Shown here in pieces: positions 3,540 to 46,921 of a stretch of 64,000 nt of DNA. The notes below the pieces were generated by a model. The model saw nothing but the letters and a program-made list of their open reading frames with translations. It did no database searches and was not told the origin of the DNA. Location of the stretch: positions 982 to 64,981 of the forward strand of contig CARAIG010000047.1 of NCBI GenBank assembly GCA_948938605.1. Direction: 5' to 3'. The DNA is from an uncultured Eubacteriales bacterium. GTDB lineage: Bacteria > Bacillota > Clostridia > Christensenellales > CAG-314. Position 1 is the first letter of the stretch; every line of letters starts with the position of its first letter. The position numbers and the translations under genes were made by a program.

Positions 3540-4727
3540 TTACTTGTTTAAATGTTTTTTTAAATCGTTTACTTTGTCAAGCTGTTCCCAAGGGAAATCA
3601 GTTCTTCCGAAATGTCCGTAACTTGCAGTAGCAAGGTAAATAGGACGCTGCAATTGGAATTTGTCGATAATGGCGCGGGGGCGCAAGTCGAATTCGTCCG
3701 ATATTATTGACGACATTACGCTATCCGAAACTTTGCCCGTACCGAAAGTGTTTACGTCTACCGAAACGGGTTTGCTGCGACCTATCGCATAAGAAATTTG
3801 CAGTTGGATTTTGTCCGCAAGTCCTGCCGCTACGATATTTTTGCAAATGTAACGCGCCATATACGTTGCCGAACGGTCTACCTTGGTAGGGTCCTTTCCG
3901 CTGAACGCGCCGCCGCCATGAGCGCAGTATCCGCCGTAAGTGTCGACAATGATTTTACGTCCAGTAAGACCGCTGTCGGCAGCGGGACCACCTATTTCGA
4001 ACCTGCCCGTCGGATTAATGTAATACTTTGTTTCTTCGTCCAACAAATCGAGCGGCACTACTTGACGTATTACAAGGTTAATCATATCCTTTGCTATCGT
4101 TGCGCTGTCAACACTGGAACTGTGCTGAGTGGACAAAACTATTGTGTCGACTCGGCAAGGCTTGTCGTTTTCGTCGTATTCGACGGTAACCTGACATTTG
4201 CCGTCGGGGCGAAGGTAATCAACAAGATTATATTTGCGCACTTCCGCAAGACGTTGACTTATTTTGTGCGCAAGCATAATAGCCATAGGCATATATTCGG
4301 GAGTTTCGTTGCAGGCATAACCGAACATCATTCCTTGGTCGCCTGCGCCGTACATATCCAGTATTTCGCCGCGGTTTTTGTATTCGTTGGAACGGTCTAC
4401 GCCGAGAGCAATGTCGGGCGACTGTTTGTCCAACGAAATTATAACTCCGCAACTGTCGGCGTCAAAACCGTATTTAGCGCGTGTGTAACCGATACTGCGT
4501 ACCGTATCGCGCACGATTGTTGCGTAATCCGTAACCGCAGTTGTTGTAATTTGTCCCATTACGAACACAGTACCGGTGCAGACCACAGTTTCGCACGCTA
4601 CGCGCGCGTCGGGATCCTTGGCTAAAATAGCGTCCAGTATCGCGTCGGATATTTGGTCGCACATTTTGTCGGGATGCCCTTCGGTTACGCTTTCGGACGT
4701 AAAAAATCTGTGCTTGGTGTTTTTCAT
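3540..4727 (-). CDS. metK: S-adenosylmethionine synthetase
   Basis: [37 protein letters not shown] and the [16 protein letters not shown] signatures. I place the start at internal Met45 of the track ORF (ATG 4727, RBS GGAGG at 4738-4742). The upstream 132 nt of the track ORF covers the riboswitch terminator. Confidence 0.95.
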
Positions 4728-4795
4728 TTTAATTTTTCCTCCGTCAAATAATTTGTTTGACGCAAAATGCGTCAAACCTATCGAAGGCGGGGATT

Positions 4796-4955
4796 GCAAC
4801 AAAAAGGTCTTGTCCATAGCAATAGACAAGACCGCAATTATCGCTTTTCGCCGTCCCATCTTTCAAGGTTGCCCCTTGCGGAATTTAGCACCTAACTTTA
4901 TTTTAGGTTGCTGTAACTTCACCGAGTCCGTCTCTCCGTTACTCTCGATAGGTTG
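4796..4955 (-). promoter_or_regulatory. SAM-I (S-box) riboswitch with its terminator expression platform, controlling metK
   Basis: The minus strand reads CTATCGAGAGTAACGGAGAGACGGACTCGGTGAAGTTACAGCAACC...GGTGCTAAATTCCGCAAGG...GAAAGATGGG. This matches the S-box core (ATCNAGAG..GGAGGGAC..GGCCC..GAAG..CAGCAACC..GGTGCTAAATCC..GAAAGAT). It is followed by the hairpin GGTCTTGTC/GACAAGACC (4806-4833) and a T-run. Confidence 0.88.
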
Positions 4956-10719: not shown

Positions 10720-13068
10720 TTAATTATTATATGTGATAGTTATTGTTGCGCCGTCTTTCGAAACGCTGTCGATTGTAATGTTGAAGTTGAGCAGTTTTCC
10801 GTCGTAACGCATATATTGCGGGAATACTTCGCTAAGCGAGTCGCCCGTTTGCCACAAGTCAGTTTGCGAAGCCCAACTGCCTTCCGTACTCTTACTCGTT
10901 TCGCCGTCTGCTTCAACCAACTTAATAAGGGGAAGCCCGGATACGGAATTGTTATTGTCGGTGAACGAACCGTATTCGTCATTATAAGGATTGTTAATAG
11001 ATGAAGCTACGTGATAAATGCGTACGCCGTATTCCGCACCGTCGTATAGAATAGTGTTTGTTTGCTGTGAGCCCATTTCGTTAAGTCCCGTTGCGGTGTA
11101 CAAATCGATCAGCAAATATTCGCAGAAATACGAGTTGTTCCAGTTTAACGGAATAAGTATTGCATATCCGCCTGCTTGCGAACTTTGTATCGTAACCGTC
11201 TTACTGGATGTAATTATTTCGGGAGTAAGCCAACCAAGCATTATTTTAGAATATACGCCGTGATCGCCTACGTTATAGTCCATCATGTCGGCACCGCCCA
11301 GTCCTAAATTACTGCCGCTGTTTTCGTCGTAATCGTAGTAGTCGTCCAAGCCTAAAAGGTGTCCCGTTTCGTGAATGTAAGTTTCGGCATTTACCTTTAC
11401 GTTAGGCATTTTGTCAATATTTTCCGTCATAAAGTCGAAACCCGCAAACAAATAATAGAATGCATCTTTACCGCCAAACGTTTGGTCGCCGTAATACCAA
11501 GTAACATACGCCCAATAGAACGAATCATCGCTTATGTAGTCGACTTCTTCCGAATAGATAAGATATACTGCGTCGATACAACCGTCGCCGTCCGAGTCGT
11601 ACTTTGTTAAGTCGATACGGCTTGCGTAATAAGCAAGCACTTCTTCCAAAAGCTTTGCGGAACCGTCTTTTGTCCAAATGTCGCCATCGATGTCAACTTG
11701 CTCGGAGTATTTAGAATAATAGGACGCACTGTTTTCCGATTCATATACATCCGCAATATCGAATGTAATATTCAACTTGCCGTAGGAAGATTTTTGGTAG
11801 AACGTTTTTACGCTTTCCCAACCGGTTTGCGCCGATGTGCCGTTAAAAGCAATGTTTAGGTTTACCAATTGCTGCTGCGTGATTGTATCGCCGCTGAATT
11901 GAACGGGAATTACAAGCGCATTGAAAGTACCTTGCGACGGCAAACCGATGTAACCGTCGTCTTTTTTCATTTGGTCTTGCAAGTTGCTGTTGTCGAATGT
12001 TTCCTTGTCGTAAACTTGGTTATCCATTGTACCGGTAGGTTCGGTAGGAAGTTCGCTGCCCGAACCGCCTGTACTTGCTTCGGGCAAAGTAAAGTTTACT
12101 TGACCGTACTTGCTAAATTCGTACGTCATTGTGTAACCGTCGGACATTTCGCCGACAATTTTTGTAATTTTGCCGTCGACGATAGTTACTATAAACGAAT
12201 TCCAATTGATGCCGTAATCGCCCAAAACAGCATTACCCGCCGATGTAGGATTAGCTGCGGCATAATTAGTACCCGATTGTACAAATGACAAACTGCTTAT
12301 TTGCGACATATCGATTATATACGAATAAGAATAATAATCGTCAAACTCATTTGAGTTTTCGTCGTATGCGGTATACGTACCGTCGCCGTTGTCGTAATAA
12401 TATGTAAAGCCGTTGGAGTTATCCCAACTTAAATATTCGGTGTATTCGCTTCCGTCGCTGCCGCTATATGTATTTAAAATGTCGTCGCCGCGATATTCGT
12501 AATACTCGATAGATTCGCCGCCTTCGCCGTCGTCTACGGTTACCGTTACGGCAAAGTTCCAGTTGGAATCGTACTGTTTTAATACGTCGCTTATATCGAC
12601 GGGTTTTGTATCTTCACCGCCTTGACTGCCGCCCGAAGTCCAGTGAGCGTACAAAGTCATATTAGACGATATTGCCATAGAATTGTCCCATTTAATGCCG
12701 TTGCCGTTTGTTTCGGTGTACCAACCGCCAAATGTGTAGCCGCTACGGGCGGGCGTAGGCAAAACGGTTGCGGAGTTTTTGTCCAATTCCCTTACTATCG
12801 GTGTAGAACCGGAGTAATTTAAATTTAAAGTCAACACTACTTTGTCGCCGACAATTCCGCCTTGGGAATTTTCCCACTTGGCGTACAAGGCGGTGCCGCT
12901 TGCAATATCGGTATCGTCATTGCTGTAAGGTTGAGTACAATCTTTATCGTAATACCAGCCCTTAAACGTCAAGTTGCCGTTAGTAACTGCGGGCAAGTCG
13001 TCTTGACCTATTGTGTGATTGCGCTCTATCGGCGTACTGTCCGCCGTTACGTAAAGTTTAATGCGCAC
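10720..13068 (-). CDS. M6 (immune-inhibitor-A-like) zinc metalloprotease with N-terminal Listeria-Bacteroides (Flg_new) repeats; separated from its signal peptide by an in-frame TAA
   Basis: HETGHLLGLDDYYDY contains the HExxH motif. FKGWYYDKDCTQPY and YTFGGWYTETNG are Flg_new repeats. The track ORF begins at a GTG that is in frame with the upstream lipoprotein signal peptide ORF. Confidence 0.8.
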   Translation of the reverse strand: MRIKLYVTADSTPIERNHTIGQDDLPAVTNGNLTFKGWYYDKDCTQPYSNDDTDIASGTALYAKWENSQGGIVGDKVVLTLNLNYSGSTPIVRELDKNSATVLPTPARSGYTFGGWYTETNGNGIKWDNSMAISSNMTLYAHWTSGGSQGGEDTKPVDISDVLKQYDSNWNFAVTVTVDDGEGGESIEYYEYRGDDILNTYSGSDGSEYTEYLSWDNSNGFTYYYDNGDGTYTAYDENSNEFDDYYSYSYIIDMSQISSLSFVQSGTNYAAANPTSAGNAVLGDYGINWNSFIVTIVDGKITKIVGEMSDGYTMTYEFSKYGQVNFTLPEASTGGSGSELPTEPTGTMDNQVYDKETFDNSNLQDQMKKDDGYIGLPSQGTFNALVIPVQFSGDTITQQQLVNLNIAFNGTSAQTGWESVKTFYQKSSYGKLNITFDIADVYESENSASYYSKYSEQVDIDGDIWTKDGSAKLLEEVLAYYASRIDLTKYDSDGDGCIDAVYLIYSEEVDYISDDSFYWAYVTWYYGDQTFGGKDAFYYLFAGFDFMTENIDKMPNVKVNAETYIHETGHLLGLDDYYDYDENSGSNLGLGGADMMDYNVGDHGVYSKIMLGWLTPEIITSSKTVTIQSSQAGGYAILIPLNWNNSYFCEYLLIDLYTATGLNEMGSQQTNTILYDGAEYGVRIYHVASSINNPYNDEYGSFTDNNNSVSGLPLIKLVEADGETSKSTEGSWASQTDLWQTGDSLSEVFPQYMRYDGKLLNFNITIDSVSKDGATITITYNN

Positions 13069-14528: not shown

Positions 14529-14547
14529 TTAAATCTGCACAAAATGA

Positions 14548-14593
14548 TAAAAACGCACCATTTTAGGAAAAATCCAAAATGATGCGTTTTTTA
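14548..14593. terminator. Bidirectional intrinsic terminator shared by the convergent PI-PLC and trkH transcription units
   Basis: Stem ACGCACCATTTT/AAAATGATGCGT, flanked by an A-run upstream and a T-run downstream. Confidence 0.6.
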
Positions 14594-14611
14594 ATGCGCA
14601 TTAAAATATAT

Positions 14612-15294
14612 GTCATCCTGAGCGAACGCAGTGAGTCGAAGGATCTAAGTGCCAACGGAATAAATCGTATATACCGTATTCTTAGATGTTTCGCAACATT
14701 CGCCGTCCTTTGGCGAAACTGCGCCTACGGCTCCGCTCAGGATGACATAATTGATGTTATGCTCAGGATGACATATATTTGGAACACGTAAAGCGTAATT
14801 GTGGTGGCATTTAATTCTGGATTGCTTCGCTAACGCTCGCAAAGACGTTACCAAGTAACAACCTGAGCCCGTAGATGGGTGCGGATACAAGACAAACGAA
14901 TAACCCGCAAAGGAAAAAACAATGCGGGCTAAAATTATATATTATGCGGTGGGCAAGAGTCTGCCCACCCTACGATGATGTTTAACGCAGTAGACGCGCC
15001 TTTTAAATTGCCTATTTTGCCCTAAGCCCGTAAAAACGAGCAAGAGAAGGCGGGTGCGGATATGACGACGGAAGCGTATTAGGTTTACGTGACTGCAATG
15101 TACGTTAAACATTTAATGACACATTTAAATCCTATTGATAATTCGTGTAAAACAACAAGTAAGGGCTAACTAAGCCCGTAGATGGGTGCGGATACAAGGC
15201 AAACGAATAGCCCGCTAGGAAGTGTATAAAGACATACACGACCGACGCGGGCTATGATGTTTAACGCAGTAGACGCGCCCATATACGGGCTTAG
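14612..15294. repeat. Palindromic repeat island A, a mosaic of extragenic palindrome modules colinear with island B
   Basis: Modules, in order: GTCATCCTGAGCGAACGCAGTGAGTCGAAGGATCT (14612-14646). CTTAGAT..TCGCAACATTCGCCGTCCTTTGGCGAAAC (14681-14719). GCTCAGGATGAC twice (14735, 14761). GGATTGCTTCGC.. (14819). Hairpin-element copies at 14864-15000 (degenerate, carrying an inserted GGTGGGCAAGAGTCTGCCCACC palindrome), 15022-~15120 (5' fragment) and 15170-15294 (intact). Confidence 0.85.
15170..15294. repeat. Intact ~125-nt long-hairpin element, copy A3, beginning 3 nt after the trkH stop codon
   Basis: CTAAGCCCGTA...TACGGGCTTAG closing stem, extended by ATGGGTGCG/CGCGCCCAT. Middle stem TAGCCCGC/GCGGGCTA. 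Apical stem GTGTAT-AAAGAC-ATACAC. Confidence 0.8.
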
Positions 15295-15297
15295 GAA

Positions 15298-16770
15298 TTA
15301 TTTTTTTATCCACGTTAAGGGGGACAGAGTCAACAATAAGGGGTAAATTTCCAGTCTGCCGAACATCATTGCAAACGTCATTGCCAGCTTGGACAGCCAA
15401 CTGTACATATAGCAACCGTTAGACGCAACTCCGAATGCAGGCCCGACGTTATTAACGCACGAAGCCGCAATTGAAATATTTGCTTCAACCGAAAGTTCGG
15501 GGTTGGGATCGAAACTTAAAATTACAAACAGCGCCGCTATTATAAACATATACAGCGCAAAGTAACTTGTAACGCCGTGCAAGGTTTCGTCCGTTACCGC
15601 CTTGCCTTCAAACTTGATTGCGTTGGCGTGACGGGGATGAATGATGCGTCGCAATTCCTTGCGTACAGCGCAGCACAGTAGCGCTATACGGGATATTTTA
15701 AGCCCGCCTGCGGTAGAACCTGCACAACCGCCCACAAACAGCAGTAAAAACAGCAAGCCTTTGGTTAATTGCGGAAGTTCGTTTATTGACGACGATGAAG
15801 GTATCGTGGAATAACCAGTTGTAGTTACAAAGGACGCCACTTGGAAAAACGCATGACGTATTCCGTCGTTTGCGCCTTGCGTAAAATTCATTTGGTTAGT
15901 AATGTTTATTGCTATTGCGGTTGTAAACACCACTATTATACCCGTATATATCCACAGTTCGCGCGACGAAAACGCCGAACGGAACTTGCGTATTAACATC
16001 AAAAAGTACAAGTTGAAGTTTACGCCGAACAACAACATAAATACCGTTATTATCCATTGACAAGCGGGATTGTACGAAGCAATGCTGTCGGCGTGTATGC
16101 CGAAACCGCCTGTACCCGCCGTACCGAACGAATGGGTTACGGCGTCGAACAACGGCATACCGGCAATTATCAACGCGATAATTTCCAAAACGGTAAGACC
16201 GACGTAAATAAGGTACAGTATTTTTGCGGTATTGCGCGCGCGGGGAACAATTTTGTCAACGGTAGGACCGGGCATTTCCGCACGTAAAATGTGCATACTG
16301 CGTTCGCTTGCGCCCGTCATAACCGCCATTACCAAAACTATTACTCCCATACCCCCTATCCAGTGGGTAAAACTCCGCCAAAACAGCAAACCTTTTGCCA
16401 TTGTTTCGATTTGCTCGCCTTGCAGTATGGTTGCGCCCGTTGTGGAAAATCCGCTTGTGGTTTCGAATAACGCGTCTATATATGACGGAATAGCTCCGCT
16501 TATAACAAAGGGCAATGCGCCTATTAGCGAAACGTACACCCACGACAGAGATACGATTATAAGCCCTTCCTTGGAAAAGAAAACGTTATTTTTAGGACGC
16601 AATGCAAACACGAGCACAACGCCTACAACTGCGCTTATACCTATCGTAACGGCAAATGCCCACCAACAGCTTTCCGTTAAACTTGCGGCAATAACCATTG
16701 GCAGTACCAACAGTGCGGCAAGCACCAACGCTACTTTGCCTAATGTGTTAAAAATTATGCGGTAGTTCAT
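15298..16770 (-). CDS. trkH: TrkH/KtrB-family potassium uptake membrane subunit
   Basis: 490 aa and polytopic, with repeated selectivity-filter-like GFSTTG, GTAGTGGFG, TTTGYS and STAGGLK segments. It lies 2 nt downstream of trkA. Confidence 0.9.
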   Translation of the reverse strand: MNYRIIFNTLGKVALVLAALLVLPMVIAASLTESCWWAFAVTIGISAVVGVVLVFALRPKNNVFFSKEGLIIVSLSWVYVSLIGALPFVISGAIPSYIDALFETTSGFSTTGATILQGEQIETMAKGLLFWRSFTHWIGGMGVIVLVMAVMTGASERSMHILRAEMPGPTVDKIVPRARNTAKILYLIYVGLTVLEIIALIIAGMPLFDAVTHSFGTAGTGGFGIHADSIASYNPACQWIITVFMLLFGVNFNLYFLMLIRKFRSAFSSRELWIYTGIIVVFTTAIAINITNQMNFTQGANDGIRHAFFQVASFVTTTGYSTIPSSSSINELPQLTKGLLFLLLFVGGCAGSTAGGLKISRIALLCCAVRKELRRIIHPRHANAIKFEGKAVTDETLHGVTSYFALYMFIIAALFVILSFDPNPELSVEANISIAASCVNNVGPAFGVASNGCYMYSWLSKLAMTFAMMFGRLEIYPLLLTLSPLTWIKK

Positions 16771-22704: not shown

Positions 22705-22738
22705 CAACTTAAAAGCCTTGACTGTACAAGTCAAGGCT
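22705..22738 (-). terminator. First intrinsic terminator downstream of the phosphoribosyltransferase (PRTase) gene, beyond repeat island B
   Basis: Stem AGCCTTGACT/AGTCAAGGCT followed by TTTTAAGTT on the minus strand. Confidence 0.6.
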
Positions 22739-22754
22739 TACGATTATGTTGGTT

Positions 22755-23175
22755 CTTAGATCCGTCGCAACATTCGCCGTCCTTTGGCGAAACATATCGA
22801 AACACAGTATGTACGATTTATCCTGTTGGTTCTTAGATCCTTCGACTACGCTCAGGATGACATAATGGATATTATTTTTCGCTCAGGATGACATATATTT
22901 TTAATGCGCAATGCGTAATGCATAATTGCGGTGACGTTTAGTTTGATTCCGGATTGCTTCGTCGCTACCGCTCCTCGCAATGACGAAAGAATACATATGT
23001 TAAATGCATTCGCAACTACGTTGCTCGGCTAAAGACGATTGGCATCCCGTTCTAAGCCCGTAGAAAGGGGTGGATGCTAGGCATACAAGTACGTGTGAGA
23101 GGAGCGTATACAGACATACGTGACTCGAACACGCACGGAGTATAACGACGCAGACGCCCCTTTATACGGGCTTAG
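22755..23175. repeat. Palindromic repeat island B, colinear with island A
   Basis: Modules, in order: CTTAGATCCGTCGCAACATTCGCCGTCCTTTGGCGAAAC (22755-22793). AGATCCTTCGACTACGCTCAGGATGAC (22835-22861). GCTCAGGATGACATATATTT (22881-22900). GGATTGCTTCGTCGCTACCGCTCCTCGCAATGACG (22951-22985). Hairpin element (23052-23175). Confidence 0.85.
23052..23175. repeat. Intact ~124-nt long-hairpin element, copy B; its closing stem contains the stop codon of the PRTase gene
   Basis: CTAAGCCCGTA...TACGGGCTTAG closing stem, extended by AAAGGGGTG/CGCCCCTTT. Apical stem GCGTAT-ACAGAC-ATACGT. The TAA stop (23172-23174) lies inside CTTAG. Confidence 0.8.
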
Positions 23176-44554: not shown

Positions 44555-46636
44555 TTAAGCATAATAAACAGTACAATACTTGTTTTCGGCTATAATATAA
44601 ATGTAATCCTTACTAAATTTGTAGAAACAATCATCCTTATCCACATTTGCCCATTCTTGACTAGTTCCGTTAAATTTAAAATCCGTTACCGCAGGACAAT
44701 ACCAAAACGCATATTTGTTTATTTTTTCAATGTCGTTTTCAATCAATATGCTTGTTAGATTTTTACAGTCTCGAAACGCACCGTATCCAACAATTTTTAC
44801 ACCCTTGCCAATAACTACCGACGTGAGCTTAGAATAGCCAAAAAACATATTTCTGCCCATTTCTGTAACACCCGTTATATTAACTTCCGTTACAAGTTCG
44901 CCGTTAATATACAAGCCGGTTTCGCCCGAATTGTGATTATTAACAAACACCGTAGCGTAAAAATCAATTCCGCACCATTGTGCAAGCGTGCCCGTAAAAT
45001 GAATTTCCGCGATGTCGTTATATCCGTAAAAGGCATCTTGGACATATTCCAAACCTGTACCCAAGGTTATCTTCGTTAAAGAGCAATTGACAAACGCTCC
45101 TTCTTTTATATTTTTTATACTGTTGGGAATTACTACGCTATTTACACGATTGTCGCGAAATGCGTTGTTGTTAATTTCCGTTACGGGCTTTCCGTCGTAA
45201 ACGGACGGGATTACAATATCGATATCGGTTGCGGTTCCTTTGCCCGTAACCATATACGAATTACCGTCGGGTTTCAATCGGTATTCCAGCCCTTGCGTAT
45301 ACGGATTCCACTTAGCATACAGCGTTGTATCGCCCGTAATAACGTCGCTGTCGAAATACCACCTGTCTTTAAGTTCAACGTCTTTAAACCAACCGAAAAA
45401 TTCGTTGCCATCCTTTAAAGGCGGTTCGGGTTCGGTTACCGTCGACGCGTATTCGGCATCGGTAATTGGCGACACTTCGCTTCCGCCATTGCTGTTAAAT
45501 GTGACGGTGTGTTTGTTCGCCGTCCACTTGGCGTCGAATTCGAAATCCGTTCCGTCAAGCTTCCATACGTTTGAAGCGGTTATTTGATTGTCGCCTAAAT
45601 ACCAACCCGCAAAGACGTGTCCCGTTTTTACGGGAGCGGGCAATTCCCCTACGGCGTTGTCGTACGTTACGGTTATACTGCGCAATGAATCGTTTTCGTC
45701 TGCGCCGTTGTAGTTTAACGTTACGGCGTACTGTTTTGCAGTATATACGGCGTTTACAGTCACATCGCCAACGGTCAACGTATAAGTTTCCCATTCGCCG
45801 TTATATCCCGTTTTTGCAGGAACTGCGGGAGCGTTTACGGCGTTGTTTTCCACTGTGTATGTACGCTCGCCCACCTTTTTACCTTCCGCAATAAAAGTTA
45901 TGTAGTAAGGTTTTGCAGTCCACTTTGCAATTAATTCAAAATTTCCGTCGTTGTTCCATACGGTAAATTGATTGACTTTGTTTCCGTCAAGAAACCAACC
46001 TTCAAAAATGTAACCCGTTTTTTGGGGTGCGGGCAATTTTCCAACATAATTATCGAACGTTACGGTTAATTGTTGTTGAGTGTCGTTGCTTGTTGCGCCG
46101 TTGTAATCAAAACTTACCGTATACTGCTTTGGAGTGTATTCGGCAAATACCGATACGTCGCCTACCGTCAAATTGTATTCGCGCCATATGCCGGTGTAGC
46201 CGACTTTTGTAGGCACGGCGGGTTCGGTTATTTGCGTGTTTTGAGCGGTATAAGTCCGCGTGTCTACTGTTTTGCCGTCCGCAATAAACGTTACGGTGTA
46301 CGTTTCGGAATCGGGTTCGGGCAAGGTAGATTTCTTTTCCACTTTAACCGTTACACTGCAACTTAAACCGTTGTACTTTACTGTCAACACGCTGTCGCCT
46401 TCCGCAAGCGTTCCGCTAACGGTATAATCCGTCACAACGGACTGTTGTCCCTTTTCGTCCGTATACGTTACGGATAGATACGGATTCAAACTTTCAAGGC
46501 TGTCGTCATCGTAAACGACGTGCTTGCCGTCAAAAACTGCGGTTAGCGTTGCTTCGACTTCGTTAGGCGTACAAGCAACGACAGTCAAACTGCAAGCAAT
46601 TGCCAACAGCAATAAAACCAATGTCAATTTTTTCAT
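44555..46636 (-). CDS. Surface lipoprotein with about 5 Listeria-Bacteroides (Flg_new) repeats and a C-terminal BspA-type leucine-rich repeat domain
   Basis: Lipobox VVAC. Repeats include GYIFEGWF, GHVFAGWY and NEFFGWF. A ~130-aa internal tandem duplication starts at YTVTFIADGK... and YYITFIAEGK.... The LRR_5-like segment is IPNSIKNIKEGAFVNCSLTKITLG. Confidence 0.8.
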   Translation of the reverse strand: MKKLTLVLLLLAIACSLTVVACTPNEVEATLTAVFDGKHVVYDDDSLESLNPYLSVTYTDEKGQQSVVTDYTVSGTLAEGDSVLTVKYNGLSCSVTVKVEKKSTLPEPDSETYTVTFIADGKTVDTRTYTAQNTQITEPAVPTKVGYTGIWREYNLTVGDVSVFAEYTPKQYTVSFDYNGATSNDTQQQLTVTFDNYVGKLPAPQKTGYIFEGWFLDGNKVNQFTVWNNDGNFELIAKWTAKPYYITFIAEGKKVGERTYTVENNAVNAPAVPAKTGYNGEWETYTLTVGDVTVNAVYTAKQYAVTLNYNGADENDSLRSITVTYDNAVGELPAPVKTGHVFAGWYLGDNQITASNVWKLDGTDFEFDAKWTANKHTVTFNSNGGSEVSPITDAEYASTVTEPEPPLKDGNEFFGWFKDVELKDRWYFDSDVITGDTTLYAKWNPYTQGLEYRLKPDGNSYMVTGKGTATDIDIVIPSVYDGKPVTEINNNAFRDNRVNSVVIPNSIKNIKEGAFVNCSLTKITLGTGLEYVQDAFYGYNDIAEIHFTGTLAQWCGIDFYATVFVNNHNSGETGLYINGELVTEVNITGVTEMGRNMFFGYSKLTSVVIGKGVKIVGYGAFRDCKNLTSILIENDIEKINKYAFWYCPAVTDFKFNGTSQEWANVDKDDCFYKFSKDYIYIIAENKYCTVYYA

Positions 46637-46702
46637 AATGTCTTTCCCCTTAAAATAATTTTTAAATAAGGTTTCGCTTTCATAAGTTCACTCAACCTTG
46701 TC

Positions 46703-46750
46703 ACAAAAAAAACGACAATAAAAAAGTGCCGTCCCTAACGGAACGACACT
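46703..46750 (-). terminator. Intrinsic terminator inside the 5' leader of the LRR lipoprotein gene (candidate attenuator or sRNA 3' end)
   Basis: The minus-strand RNA reads AGUGUCGUUCC-GUUA-GGGACGGCACU followed by UUUUUAUUGUCGUUUUUUUU. Its two G-U pairs would be C-A mismatches on the plus strand. Confidence 0.65.
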
Positions 46751-46892
46751 TGTAGAATATGCGTCCCGATAGTTACCACACTATTTCCCAATGTTTAGCA
46801 AACAAACATGCCAAAGAAAGACACACATATCTACCAATAGATAATTATGTGTTTGTTTGCCTAAAAATATTAAGAAATAATGTGGTAAAATG

Positions 46893-46921
46893 ATTGTAAC
46901 AAAACAAAATTAAAAAGTCAA
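46893..46921 (-). promoter_or_regulatory. Near-consensus sigma-70 promoter facing the LRR lipoprotein gene
   Basis: The minus strand reads TTGACT, 17-nt spacer, TACAAT, about 250 nt upstream of the ATG at 46636. Confidence 0.55.

Follow-up and report, generated by a model that had tools for sequence, protein, structure and literature searches.

Repetitive extragenic palindromic (REP) elements are extragenic, lie mostly downstream of open reading frames (ORFs), and can supply a stop codon, and a survey of them lists eight phyla, with Bacillota/Firmicutes not among these (PMC3733652). Longer stem-loop repeats of 100-170 bp, namely ERIC, Correia/NEMIS, RUP, BOX, bcr1, EFAR, and Nezha, are inserted beside coding regions and are co-transcribed (PMC3733652). 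Here, we describe a hairpin element of ~125 nt, two intact copies of which stand at gene ends in a 64,000-nt stretch of contig CARAIG010000047.1 (positions 982 to 64,981 of the forward strand; hereafter, the window) from an uncultured gut Clostridia metagenome-assembled genome (MAG). The element covaries strongly, lies outside Rfam 15, and is found repeatedly where core genes end, in gut Clostridia as well as in Peptococcaceae-like and other Bacillota. We favor, with moderate confidence, the reading that it represents a family of mobile hairpin repeats of Bacillota resembling REPs, their inverted pairs (REPINs), and miniature inverted-repeat transposable elements (MITEs), whose fold is selected for single-strand propagation.

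The two intact copies, the helical parts of copy B, and the genes that the copies adjoin, trkH and a phosphoribosyltransferase (PRTase) gene, are as follows.

15170..15294, plus strand: copy A, intact hairpin of 125 nt (RNA fold -71.8 kcal/mol, z = -11.7; 99.6 bits with covariance model R3)
15298..16770, minus strand: trkH (ORF list; Pfam PF02386), stop at 15298-15300, 3 nt past the 3' end of copy A
23052..23175, plus strand: copy B, intact hairpin of 124 nt (RNA fold -66.2 kcal/mol, z = -12.4; R3 96.7 bits)
23052-23062/23165-23175, plus strand: copy B closing helix P1
23063/23164, plus strand: copy B 1x1 G.A mismatch
23064-23072/23155-23163, plus strand: copy B helix P2
23073-74/23153-54, plus strand: copy B tandem G.A
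23083-86/23140-43, plus strand: copy B helix P4
23099-23101/23124-26, plus strand: copy B helix P6
23102-03/23122-23, plus strand: copy B second tandem G.A
23104-09/23116-21, plus strand: copy B apical helix P7
23110-15, plus strand: copy B apical loop
23172..23708, minus strand: PRTase gene (ORF list; Pfam PF00156), TAA stop at 23172-23174 inside the closing stem of copy B

A preliminary description, made from the sequence alone, had placed two hairpins of ~125 nt here, and both are present at 15170-15294 and 23052-23175 with the same irregular fold. Most of the detail it gave was borne out, including the identical 11-bp closing stem of both copies (CTAAGCCCGTA/TACGGGCTTAG), the conserved 1x1 G/A mismatch above it, the apical-stem pair that is T-A in one copy and C-G in the other, the apical loop A(A/C)AGAC, the PRTase stop within the closing stem, and the 3-nt distance to the trkH stop. 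Folding the two copies jointly with RNAalifold gave 40 pairs, 10 of them changed on both sides, two on one side, and none broken, which agrees with its claim that the second stem differs in sequence and still pairs; the U-G wobbles that it had put at an equivalent place of that stem are in fact two pairs apart (columns 18/108 and 20/106). Copies A and B have a common closing stem, yet are only 63% identical along the 46 nt of 5' arm that align, and every difference within a helix is compensated. The sequence of copy B is identical in four further assemblies of the window species. The closing stem itself has seven matches in the window at up to one mismatch (0.76 expected; 0/100 shuffles reach seven). 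None of 200 shuffles was as stable as the plus strand of either copy when folded as RNA, and the minus strands of copies B and A were weaker (-56.9 and -64.2 kcal/mol). DNA parameters returned the same fold, with a smaller gap between the plus and minus strands than as RNA (-30.9 versus -27.2 and -37.8 versus -31.9).

A covariance model of copies A and B recovered a divergent copy in a related MAG (L006:1226-1347) that had other termini and the same inner motifs. These motifs were condensed into a core pattern (AGGCAWAC N13-21 AGYGTAY N4-7 TACRYGACY), with which we scanned Joint Genome Institute (JGI) metagenomes, yielding 22 loci, of which 20 were full-length or nearly so by covariance models R2/R3 (50-114 bits); the other two, L035 and L042, were chance matches to the pattern. 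More copies were found at L006:13712-13836 in the related MAG and at L059:7370-7495, and about 30 were encountered in total. Beyond those of the window, about 25 came from 20 metagenome contigs and related MAGs. Ascertainment by a core-motif pattern means that diversity is underestimated and intact copies are over-represented in this set. Local GC content of the copies ranges over 29-61% and that of the host loci over 35-61%. Where hosts can be placed they are Bacillota: besides the window itself, L030 carries OLE RNA, and the RadA of L034 is nearest to Peptococcaceae and Clostridiales MAGs.

Scans with the terminal stem failed because the termini are not the conserved part of the element. They returned nothing from JGI metagenomes, only an unrelated Rickettsiales palindromic repeat from genome contigs, and chance matches within phage coding sequence from viral sequences. 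The Rickettsiales MAG contig (L001:1700-1900) holds nested palindromic repeats of the GTCACCCTAAGCCCGTATTG and CACCCTGAGCCTGTCGAAGGGTG type (RPE/CGTC-like), which share the word CTAAGCCCGTA with the window element through chance or distant relation.

Across the family, the conserved part is a strand-specific, purine-rich core consisting of AGGCAAAC, then GGAGYGUAY-loop-RUACRUGACC, and then GUUUAACGnAGUA. Read from the base upward (alignments A4 and A6), the hairpin is closed by a helix of 8-12 bp; most copies then have a 1x1 G.A mismatch, and a second helix follows, above which a purine-rich interruption (tandem G.A in the window copies) leads to a short helix. A conserved asymmetric loop (5' side nAGGC, 3' side AACGnA) flanks the helix AAAC/GUUU, and above this a variable helix of 5-10 bp carries the apical module, which is made up of a 2-3-bp GG/CC helix, a tandem G.A, the helix GYGUAY/RUACRY of 6 bp, and a loop of 5-7 nt whose sequence is not conserved. 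Sixteen of 20 copies begin the apical helix with a G.U pair, and the remaining four have G-C there. In the GC-rich copy at L051, AGGC/GCCU stands in place of AAAC/GUUU and the flanking loop letters are kept.

Covariation had been proposed from two copies, and the steps then suggested, namely collecting copies, building a covariance model, and testing covariation, gave much stronger support for selection on the fold, whether as RNA or as single-stranded DNA. When three copies were aligned, 19 of 44 pairs were already compensated. In an independent MAFFT alignment, which took 20 copies from different contigs, pairing held in 91.3% of cells compared with 69.8% in 500 shuffles, changes on both sides numbered 149 compared with 50, and no shuffle reached the observed values. 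As a further control, sliding the partners by 1-3 columns reduced pairing to 27-38%. The fold is therefore under selection, with outer helices that need pairing only and an inner core that is conserved in sequence.

The core is strand-specific, since model R3 scores the plus strand of copy A at 99.6 bits and its minus strand at 17.3 bits, while the reverse of copy B fell below the listing threshold. It presents the G.A, tandem G.A, and G.U on one strand only, the complement having pyrimidine mismatches there, and the model strand is more stable as RNA by about 8-10 kcal/mol in nearly all copies. In the helices apart from the single conserved G.U, G.U pairs (17) were not commoner than A.C mismatches (16); the outer stems therefore favor neither strand, and only the conserved core accounts for the asymmetry.

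The preliminary description could not assign the element to an RNA family, and this holds: Rfam 15 returned no family at the elements of the window or the other loci at the gathering threshold, and no consistent match to them in E-value mode. Gathering-threshold matches elsewhere comprised tRNA, rRNA, OLE, and glycine riboswitches at the loci and, in the window, only a SAM riboswitch (RF00162, 73.3 bits, 4853-4954, minus strand) upstream of the S-adenosylmethionine synthetase gene (3540-4859, minus strand). BLAST against plasmid and phage records gave no match to the element, and a full-text search of the literature found no description of this hairpin family, though one may still exist.

Placement was analyzed at 23 loci, with the better-folding strand as positional reference. 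A gene boundary lies next to the 3' end of the element, at a median distance of about 3 nt, while 35-400 nt separate its 5' side from the next gene, in a spacer that often holds older copies or other repeats. At about 15 of the 23 loci an ORF on the opposite strand has its stop between 14 nt inside the element and 29 nt past its 3' end, compared with a single sense copy adjoining a stop (L040, after the rpmJ stop). Three loci have a tRNA gene (for Phe, Asn, or Met) that begins on the same strand 4-6 nt downstream of the element, and same-strand ORFs start 5 and 14 nt downstream at L030 (recR) and L059 (clpC). The flanking genes are housekeeping genes: trkA/trkH, PRTase, uvrB, hrcA-grpE-dnaK, carB, pgk, dnaX-ybaB-recR, hup, metG, radA, rpmD-rplO, rpmJ-rpsM, NAD kinase, glyA, and ctsR-clpC. 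Within ribosomal-protein operons, both orientations occur (sense in rpmJ-rpsM, antisense in rpmD-rplO). A fixed orientation to replication was considered and rejected, as GC skew on the model strand is negative at 15 and positive at 8 of the 23 loci and follows gene orientation. With both orientations present and skew following the genes, the element therefore has no fixed relation to transcription or replication. Covariance scores are equally high for sense and antisense copies, which argues against a cis-acting function in host mRNAs.

At L030 (7846-8132, minus strand), ybaB and recR are separated by an insert of 270 nt, one end of which coincides with that of the hairpin and which is flanked by an 8-bp direct repeat, GTAATAAT; removing the insert rebuilds a compact junction of ybaB stop and recR start. 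The Shine-Dalgarno sequence of recR, AGAGGAGG, directly precedes the hairpin on its 5' side and the ATG follows 5 nt past its 3' end, with the whole 125-nt hairpin between them, and translation of recR would need folding of the hairpin to join the two.

Comparison with close relatives revealed gain and loss at orthologous sites. After the PRTase gene, the element is present in the window species and absent in relatives with an 84-94% identical PRTase, where the same final codon is followed by a plain terminator or a short spacer. One of these, L022 (PRTase 94% identical), is without the insertion, yet copies A and B are only 63% alike over the 5' arm, which implies several structurally intact source lineages rather than divergence in place. 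The trkA-trkH spacer holds an element only in L006 among the relatives and measures 2-6 nt in the others; the site after the DUF1858 gene is occupied in L006 and empty in L023; the site after radA is occupied in L034 and empty in L059/L060 (90% identical RadA) and L056 (81%); and the ctsR-clpC spacer is occupied in L059 and empty in L056. Just after radA in L056, a Peptococcaceae-like MAG, there is instead a perfect tandem array of about eight copies of the 21-nt unit GGCTCTGGCACCGCCTGC (11400-11560), and a TnpB (OrfB_IS605) gene lies 5 kb beyond it.

Tandem arrays with decayed or internally deleted upstream units were observed in the window and at L034, L036, L039, L043, L044, L051, and L059, and in such arrays the intact unit always adjoins the gene. 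Upstream of the array at L043, repeats at 1040-1230 match LPR69 (Legionella RNA 69) of Rfam at 31 bits, below threshold, on both strands; the LPR69 small-RNA family may itself be a REP-type repeat. In the window, decayed units and neighboring repeat mosaics are arranged as follows.

14579..14862, strand not assigned: palindromic repeat mosaic 5' of the hairpin array (repeat families D14, D17, D19, I1, I7)
14863..15021, plus strand: decayed tandem copy (repeat families D2, D7; BLAST; R3 21.1 bits, E = 0.01; fold z = -3.0 only)
15022..15169, plus strand: decayed tandem copy (R3 18.7 bits over 15022-15138; DNA fold z = +1.33)
22720..23051, strand not assigned: second repeat mosaic on the 5' side of copy B, with the PRTase stop to one side of it and the promoter-like site of an AMP-binding gene to the other

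The first decayed copy keeps a 5' arm 93-95% identical to that of copy A, has unrelated sequence at the apex, and has lost the 3' closing arm. The second has an intact 5' closing arm (CTAAGCCCGTA), a recognizable apex (GGAAGCGTAT..TACGTGAC), and a 3' arm degenerated to TAAGGGCTAA, and its DNA fold z-score indicates that it has lost folding.

The mosaic at 14579-14862 consists of GCTCAGGATGACATA units, GGATTGCTTCG..CTCGCAAAGACG, and TTCTTAGAT..CGCCGTCCTTTGGCGAAAC, and is homologous to that at 22720-23051 (71% column identity with long near-identical blocks; alignment A5). The promoter-like site of the AMP-binding gene near the latter is TTGCAA-17-TATACT, on the minus strand at 22707-22679. Mosaic units at both window loci and at L045:1000-1080 include GCTCAGGATGACATA, GGATTGCTTCG..CTCGCAATGACG, and TTCTTAGAT..CGCCGTCCTTTGGCGAAAC; on the complement they read as CGTCATTGCGAG...GCAATCC and TGTCATCCTGAGCG... 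units and resemble the CGTC/TGTC-tagged REPs of PMC3733652, and units of this REP-like type flank a hairpin copy in the unrelated contig L045 as well. Comparison of window 14529-15297 with L007:15307-17680 further revealed that relatives carry a second trk pair (TrkA-like, 217 aa; TrkH-like, 361-448 aa) between trkH and the PI-PLC gene, which is missing in the window, its site being taken by the repeat array.

Gain and loss in close relatives, tandem arrays, decayed copies, and stop-codon placement make it more likely that the fold is selected for propagation than for what each copy does in the host. We also count in favor of mobile repeats that CGTC/TGTC-tagged REP-like units accompany the hairpins in the window and in L045, that differences between intact copies are compensated, and that the copies take no account of which way host genes are transcribed. 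New copies would be made only from structurally intact ones, whose folded single strand would be recognized by an enzyme acting in trans; that strand would most likely be DNA, as for REPs and REPINs with the REP-associated tyrosine transposase (RAYT) or other HUH-type enzymes. Compensated differences could then build up between source lineages, while inserted copies would decay without compensation. MITE-like stem-loop repeats can alter mRNA stability, and a copy transcribed with its neighbors would put a stable hairpin into a 3' untranslated region, an operon spacer, or a tRNA leader.

Several observations weigh against mobile repeats of this type. No transposase, RAYT, reverse transcriptase, or integrase was found among the genes adjoining any of about 30 copies; for the window genome, 64 kb plus 10-kb flanks were covered. 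The 10-kb extension contained no further hairpin copy and showed strain-variable mobile elements instead: past the right end of the window (L052:1-9300 and L053:1-9700), strains of the window species differ beyond the 5'-nucleotidase gene, one having a prophage-like block with a tyrosine integrase and another a conjugative block (TraG-like ATPase, single-stranded DNA-binding protein, type IV secretion system pilin). No target-site duplication of fixed length was found in a comparison for which clean empty sites were rarely available: flanking direct repeats were seen only at L030 (8 bp) and L006b (6 bp, possibly by chance), and the other loci had no direct repeat at the junction. The 11-bp ends are identical within the window and unrelated in L006 and the metagenome copies, conserved terminal inverted repeats were not found across the family, and no insertion sequence with the ends of the element was found. 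A conserved inner core with variable termini is the opposite of REPINs and MITEs, and maintenance of that core across hosts of 35-61% genomic GC, together with a G.U that 16 of 20 copies retain although G-C would make a stronger pair, looks more like a functional RNA or a protein-binding site than an ordinary selfish repeat. Lastly, the three copies 4-6 nt upstream of same-strand tRNA genes are probably transcribed and released by RNase P.

The preliminary description had itself weighed whether the copies might show no covariation or be simple REP/MITE DNA with terminal inverted repeats and duplications. Covariation is clear, and the REP/MITE comparison stands in part: gain and loss, arrays, decay, and stop-codon placement fit it, whereas family-wide terminal inverted repeats and a fixed duplication were not found. 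Two more specific ideas on insertion were rejected. An IS630-like or CTAG-type origin, with C-TA-AGCCC...GGGCT-TA-G read as a TA duplication, disagrees with the different ends elsewhere and with the TAA, not TAG, that relatives have at the PRTase stop; and copying of the outer stem from the end of the target gene disagrees with the same stem at two window loci and with L023, which is without the stem sequence of L006.

Among the alternatives, a functional structured RNA of Bacillota, acting for example in protein binding or titration, processing, or stability and dispersed by duplication, survives best and is possible, although we consider it somewhat improbable. Such an RNA would be transcribed in the orientation of the model strand and, at some loci, would be a tRNA 5' leader released by RNase P. 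The strand-specific core (99.6 versus 17.3 bits), the greater RNA stability of the model strand in nearly all copies, and the tandem sheared G.A with G.U in 16/20 copies, typical of RNA recognition sites, all agree with this, as do the three copies just upstream of tRNA-Phe, tRNA-Asn, and tRNA-Met, the sense copies in the operon spacers rpmJ-rpsM, ybaB-recR, and ctsR-clpC, and the L030 hairpin exactly between the recR Shine-Dalgarno sequence and ATG, which is workable only with folded RNA. However, about 15 of 23 loci are antisense to their flanks, often inside operons (trkA-trkH, L30-L15, grpE-dnaK), there is no conserved upstream promoter and no U-tract after the element, and the loop sequence is not conserved. 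Decay and rapid gain and loss show that individual copies are dispensable, and beyond the conserved pair G.U is no commoner than A.C (17 versus 16).

It is rather unlikely that the hairpin is the constant 3'-terminal module of a new type of non-autonomous bacterial mobile element inserting one-ended at gene boundaries, or that a conserved Bacillota protein binds the core and the family is a class of trans-acting RNA that Rfam has missed. For the module, the length of the 5' tail and the flanking duplication would vary, as in L030 and L006b, and a dedicated enzyme reading the purine-rich core could copy hairpin-terminated RNA or a single strand.

A folded single-stranded-DNA site, either an attC-like site at which an unknown recombinase would act or a promoter/priming site of the Frpo or single-strand origin (sso) type, is distinctly doubtful. 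At stop codons the better-folding strand lies antisense to the ORF about 15 times against one sense case (L040), which is the geometry of integron cassettes, and structure is kept with variable stems as in attC. In alignment A6, many 3' arms carry the -35/-10-like string TTTAAC-N15-17-TATAAn or TAGAAT, whose -10-like box includes the conserved A of the G.A mismatch, and one promoter-like call was made in a 3' arm (L036). In most copies this box is without the invariant final T, GC-rich copies have no such box, and none was called in the window; an outward sigma-70 promoter in the 3' arm is therefore a weak reading, with the L036 call as its single instance. Nor were RYYYAAC/GTTRRRY core sites, an integrase, or cassette arrays present, the flanking ORFs being core genes in conserved synteny; plasmids and phages, where sso and Frpo elements live, gave no match, and both orientations in ribosomal-protein operons leave no fixed relation to replication.

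Host-selected punctuation at gene ends (a terminator, insulator, 3'-end stabilizer, or a nucleoid-protein or gyrase site as proposed for bacterial interspersed mosaic elements, BIMEs) is very improbable: it would suit the tight placement about 3 nt from gene boundaries, the intact array unit always beside a gene, and hairpins that are very stable on either strand, but close relatives manage without a copy at these positions, at most loci it is the less stable strand that is transcribed, and most copies are without a U-tract, with no intrinsic terminator called at the elements and T-rich 3' flanks in few copies only.

Two other features of the window deserve mention. At 46700-46900 (minus strand), the 5' leader of a 693-aa gene (44555-46636, minus strand) forms a 116-nt hairpin (-46.5 kcal/mol, z = -8.7) that contains AGGCAAAC, with a promoter-like TTGACT..TACAAT before it and a terminator-like hairpin plus T-run after it; Rfam gives no family at threshold there, the element models match weakly (E about 0.05-0.13), and the leader hairpin may be T-box-like or another attenuator. 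Separately, a 31-nt motif, AGCAATGTG..ACACTGTAAAGTTT, occurs in four plus-strand copies (20939, 29566, 42854, and 43807; 68-100% identical) and may be a shared operator or promoter element.

A model of the hairpin family would improve the annotation of Bacillota MAGs, and the element may explain contig breaks and spurious small ORFs. It also marks sites at which stop codons and Shine-Dalgarno/AUG spacing have been rebuilt by insertion. If it is an RNA, it forms a new widespread class.

The family can be compared with known systems. Like a retron non-coding RNA, it has a closing stem followed by an unpaired G, but its fold is unbranched and no reverse transcriptase gene adjoins it. Integron attC sites are also imperfect hairpins of about 60-140 nt after an ORF, conserve structure over stem sequence, and are folded on the strand antisense to the ORF; here, however, there are no R/L core boxes, AAC/GTT triplets, integrase, or cassettes, the flanks are core genes, and the apex is conserved whereas that of attC is variable. 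The structured MITE-like repeats introduced above (ERIC, Correia/NEMIS, RUP, BOX, bcr1, EFAR, and Nezha) have in common with the element a long stem-loop beside coding regions, yet each belongs to one genus and has conserved terminal inverted repeats, fixed duplications (e.g., TA), and a related transposase, while termini here vary between genomes, no fixed duplication was found, and hosts span 35-61% genomic GC.

REPs and REPINs, including BIMEs and mobilized by RAYT, have several features in common with the element: a position downstream of ORFs, supply of stop codons, long single-strand hairpins, clusters and mosaics, varying presence, and compensated changes. A REP is a palindrome of 20-40 nt and a REPIN an inverted pair around a variable spacer, whereas this element is one 125-nt hairpin of about seven helices; the terminal GTAG/CGTC tag has no counterpart, a GTAG string being internal in some copies only; and conservation falls on the inner core and apex and not on the ends, with a core common to very different hosts. 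Intact copies within one genome are only 63% identical (5' arm), hosts are Bacillota, and no RAYT, which as a single-copy IS200/IS605-type Y1 gene is usually flanked by its repeats, stands beside the copies. If the element is mobile DNA, it would extend biology of the REP/REPIN type to Bacillota, in an unusual architecture of conserved core and free termini.

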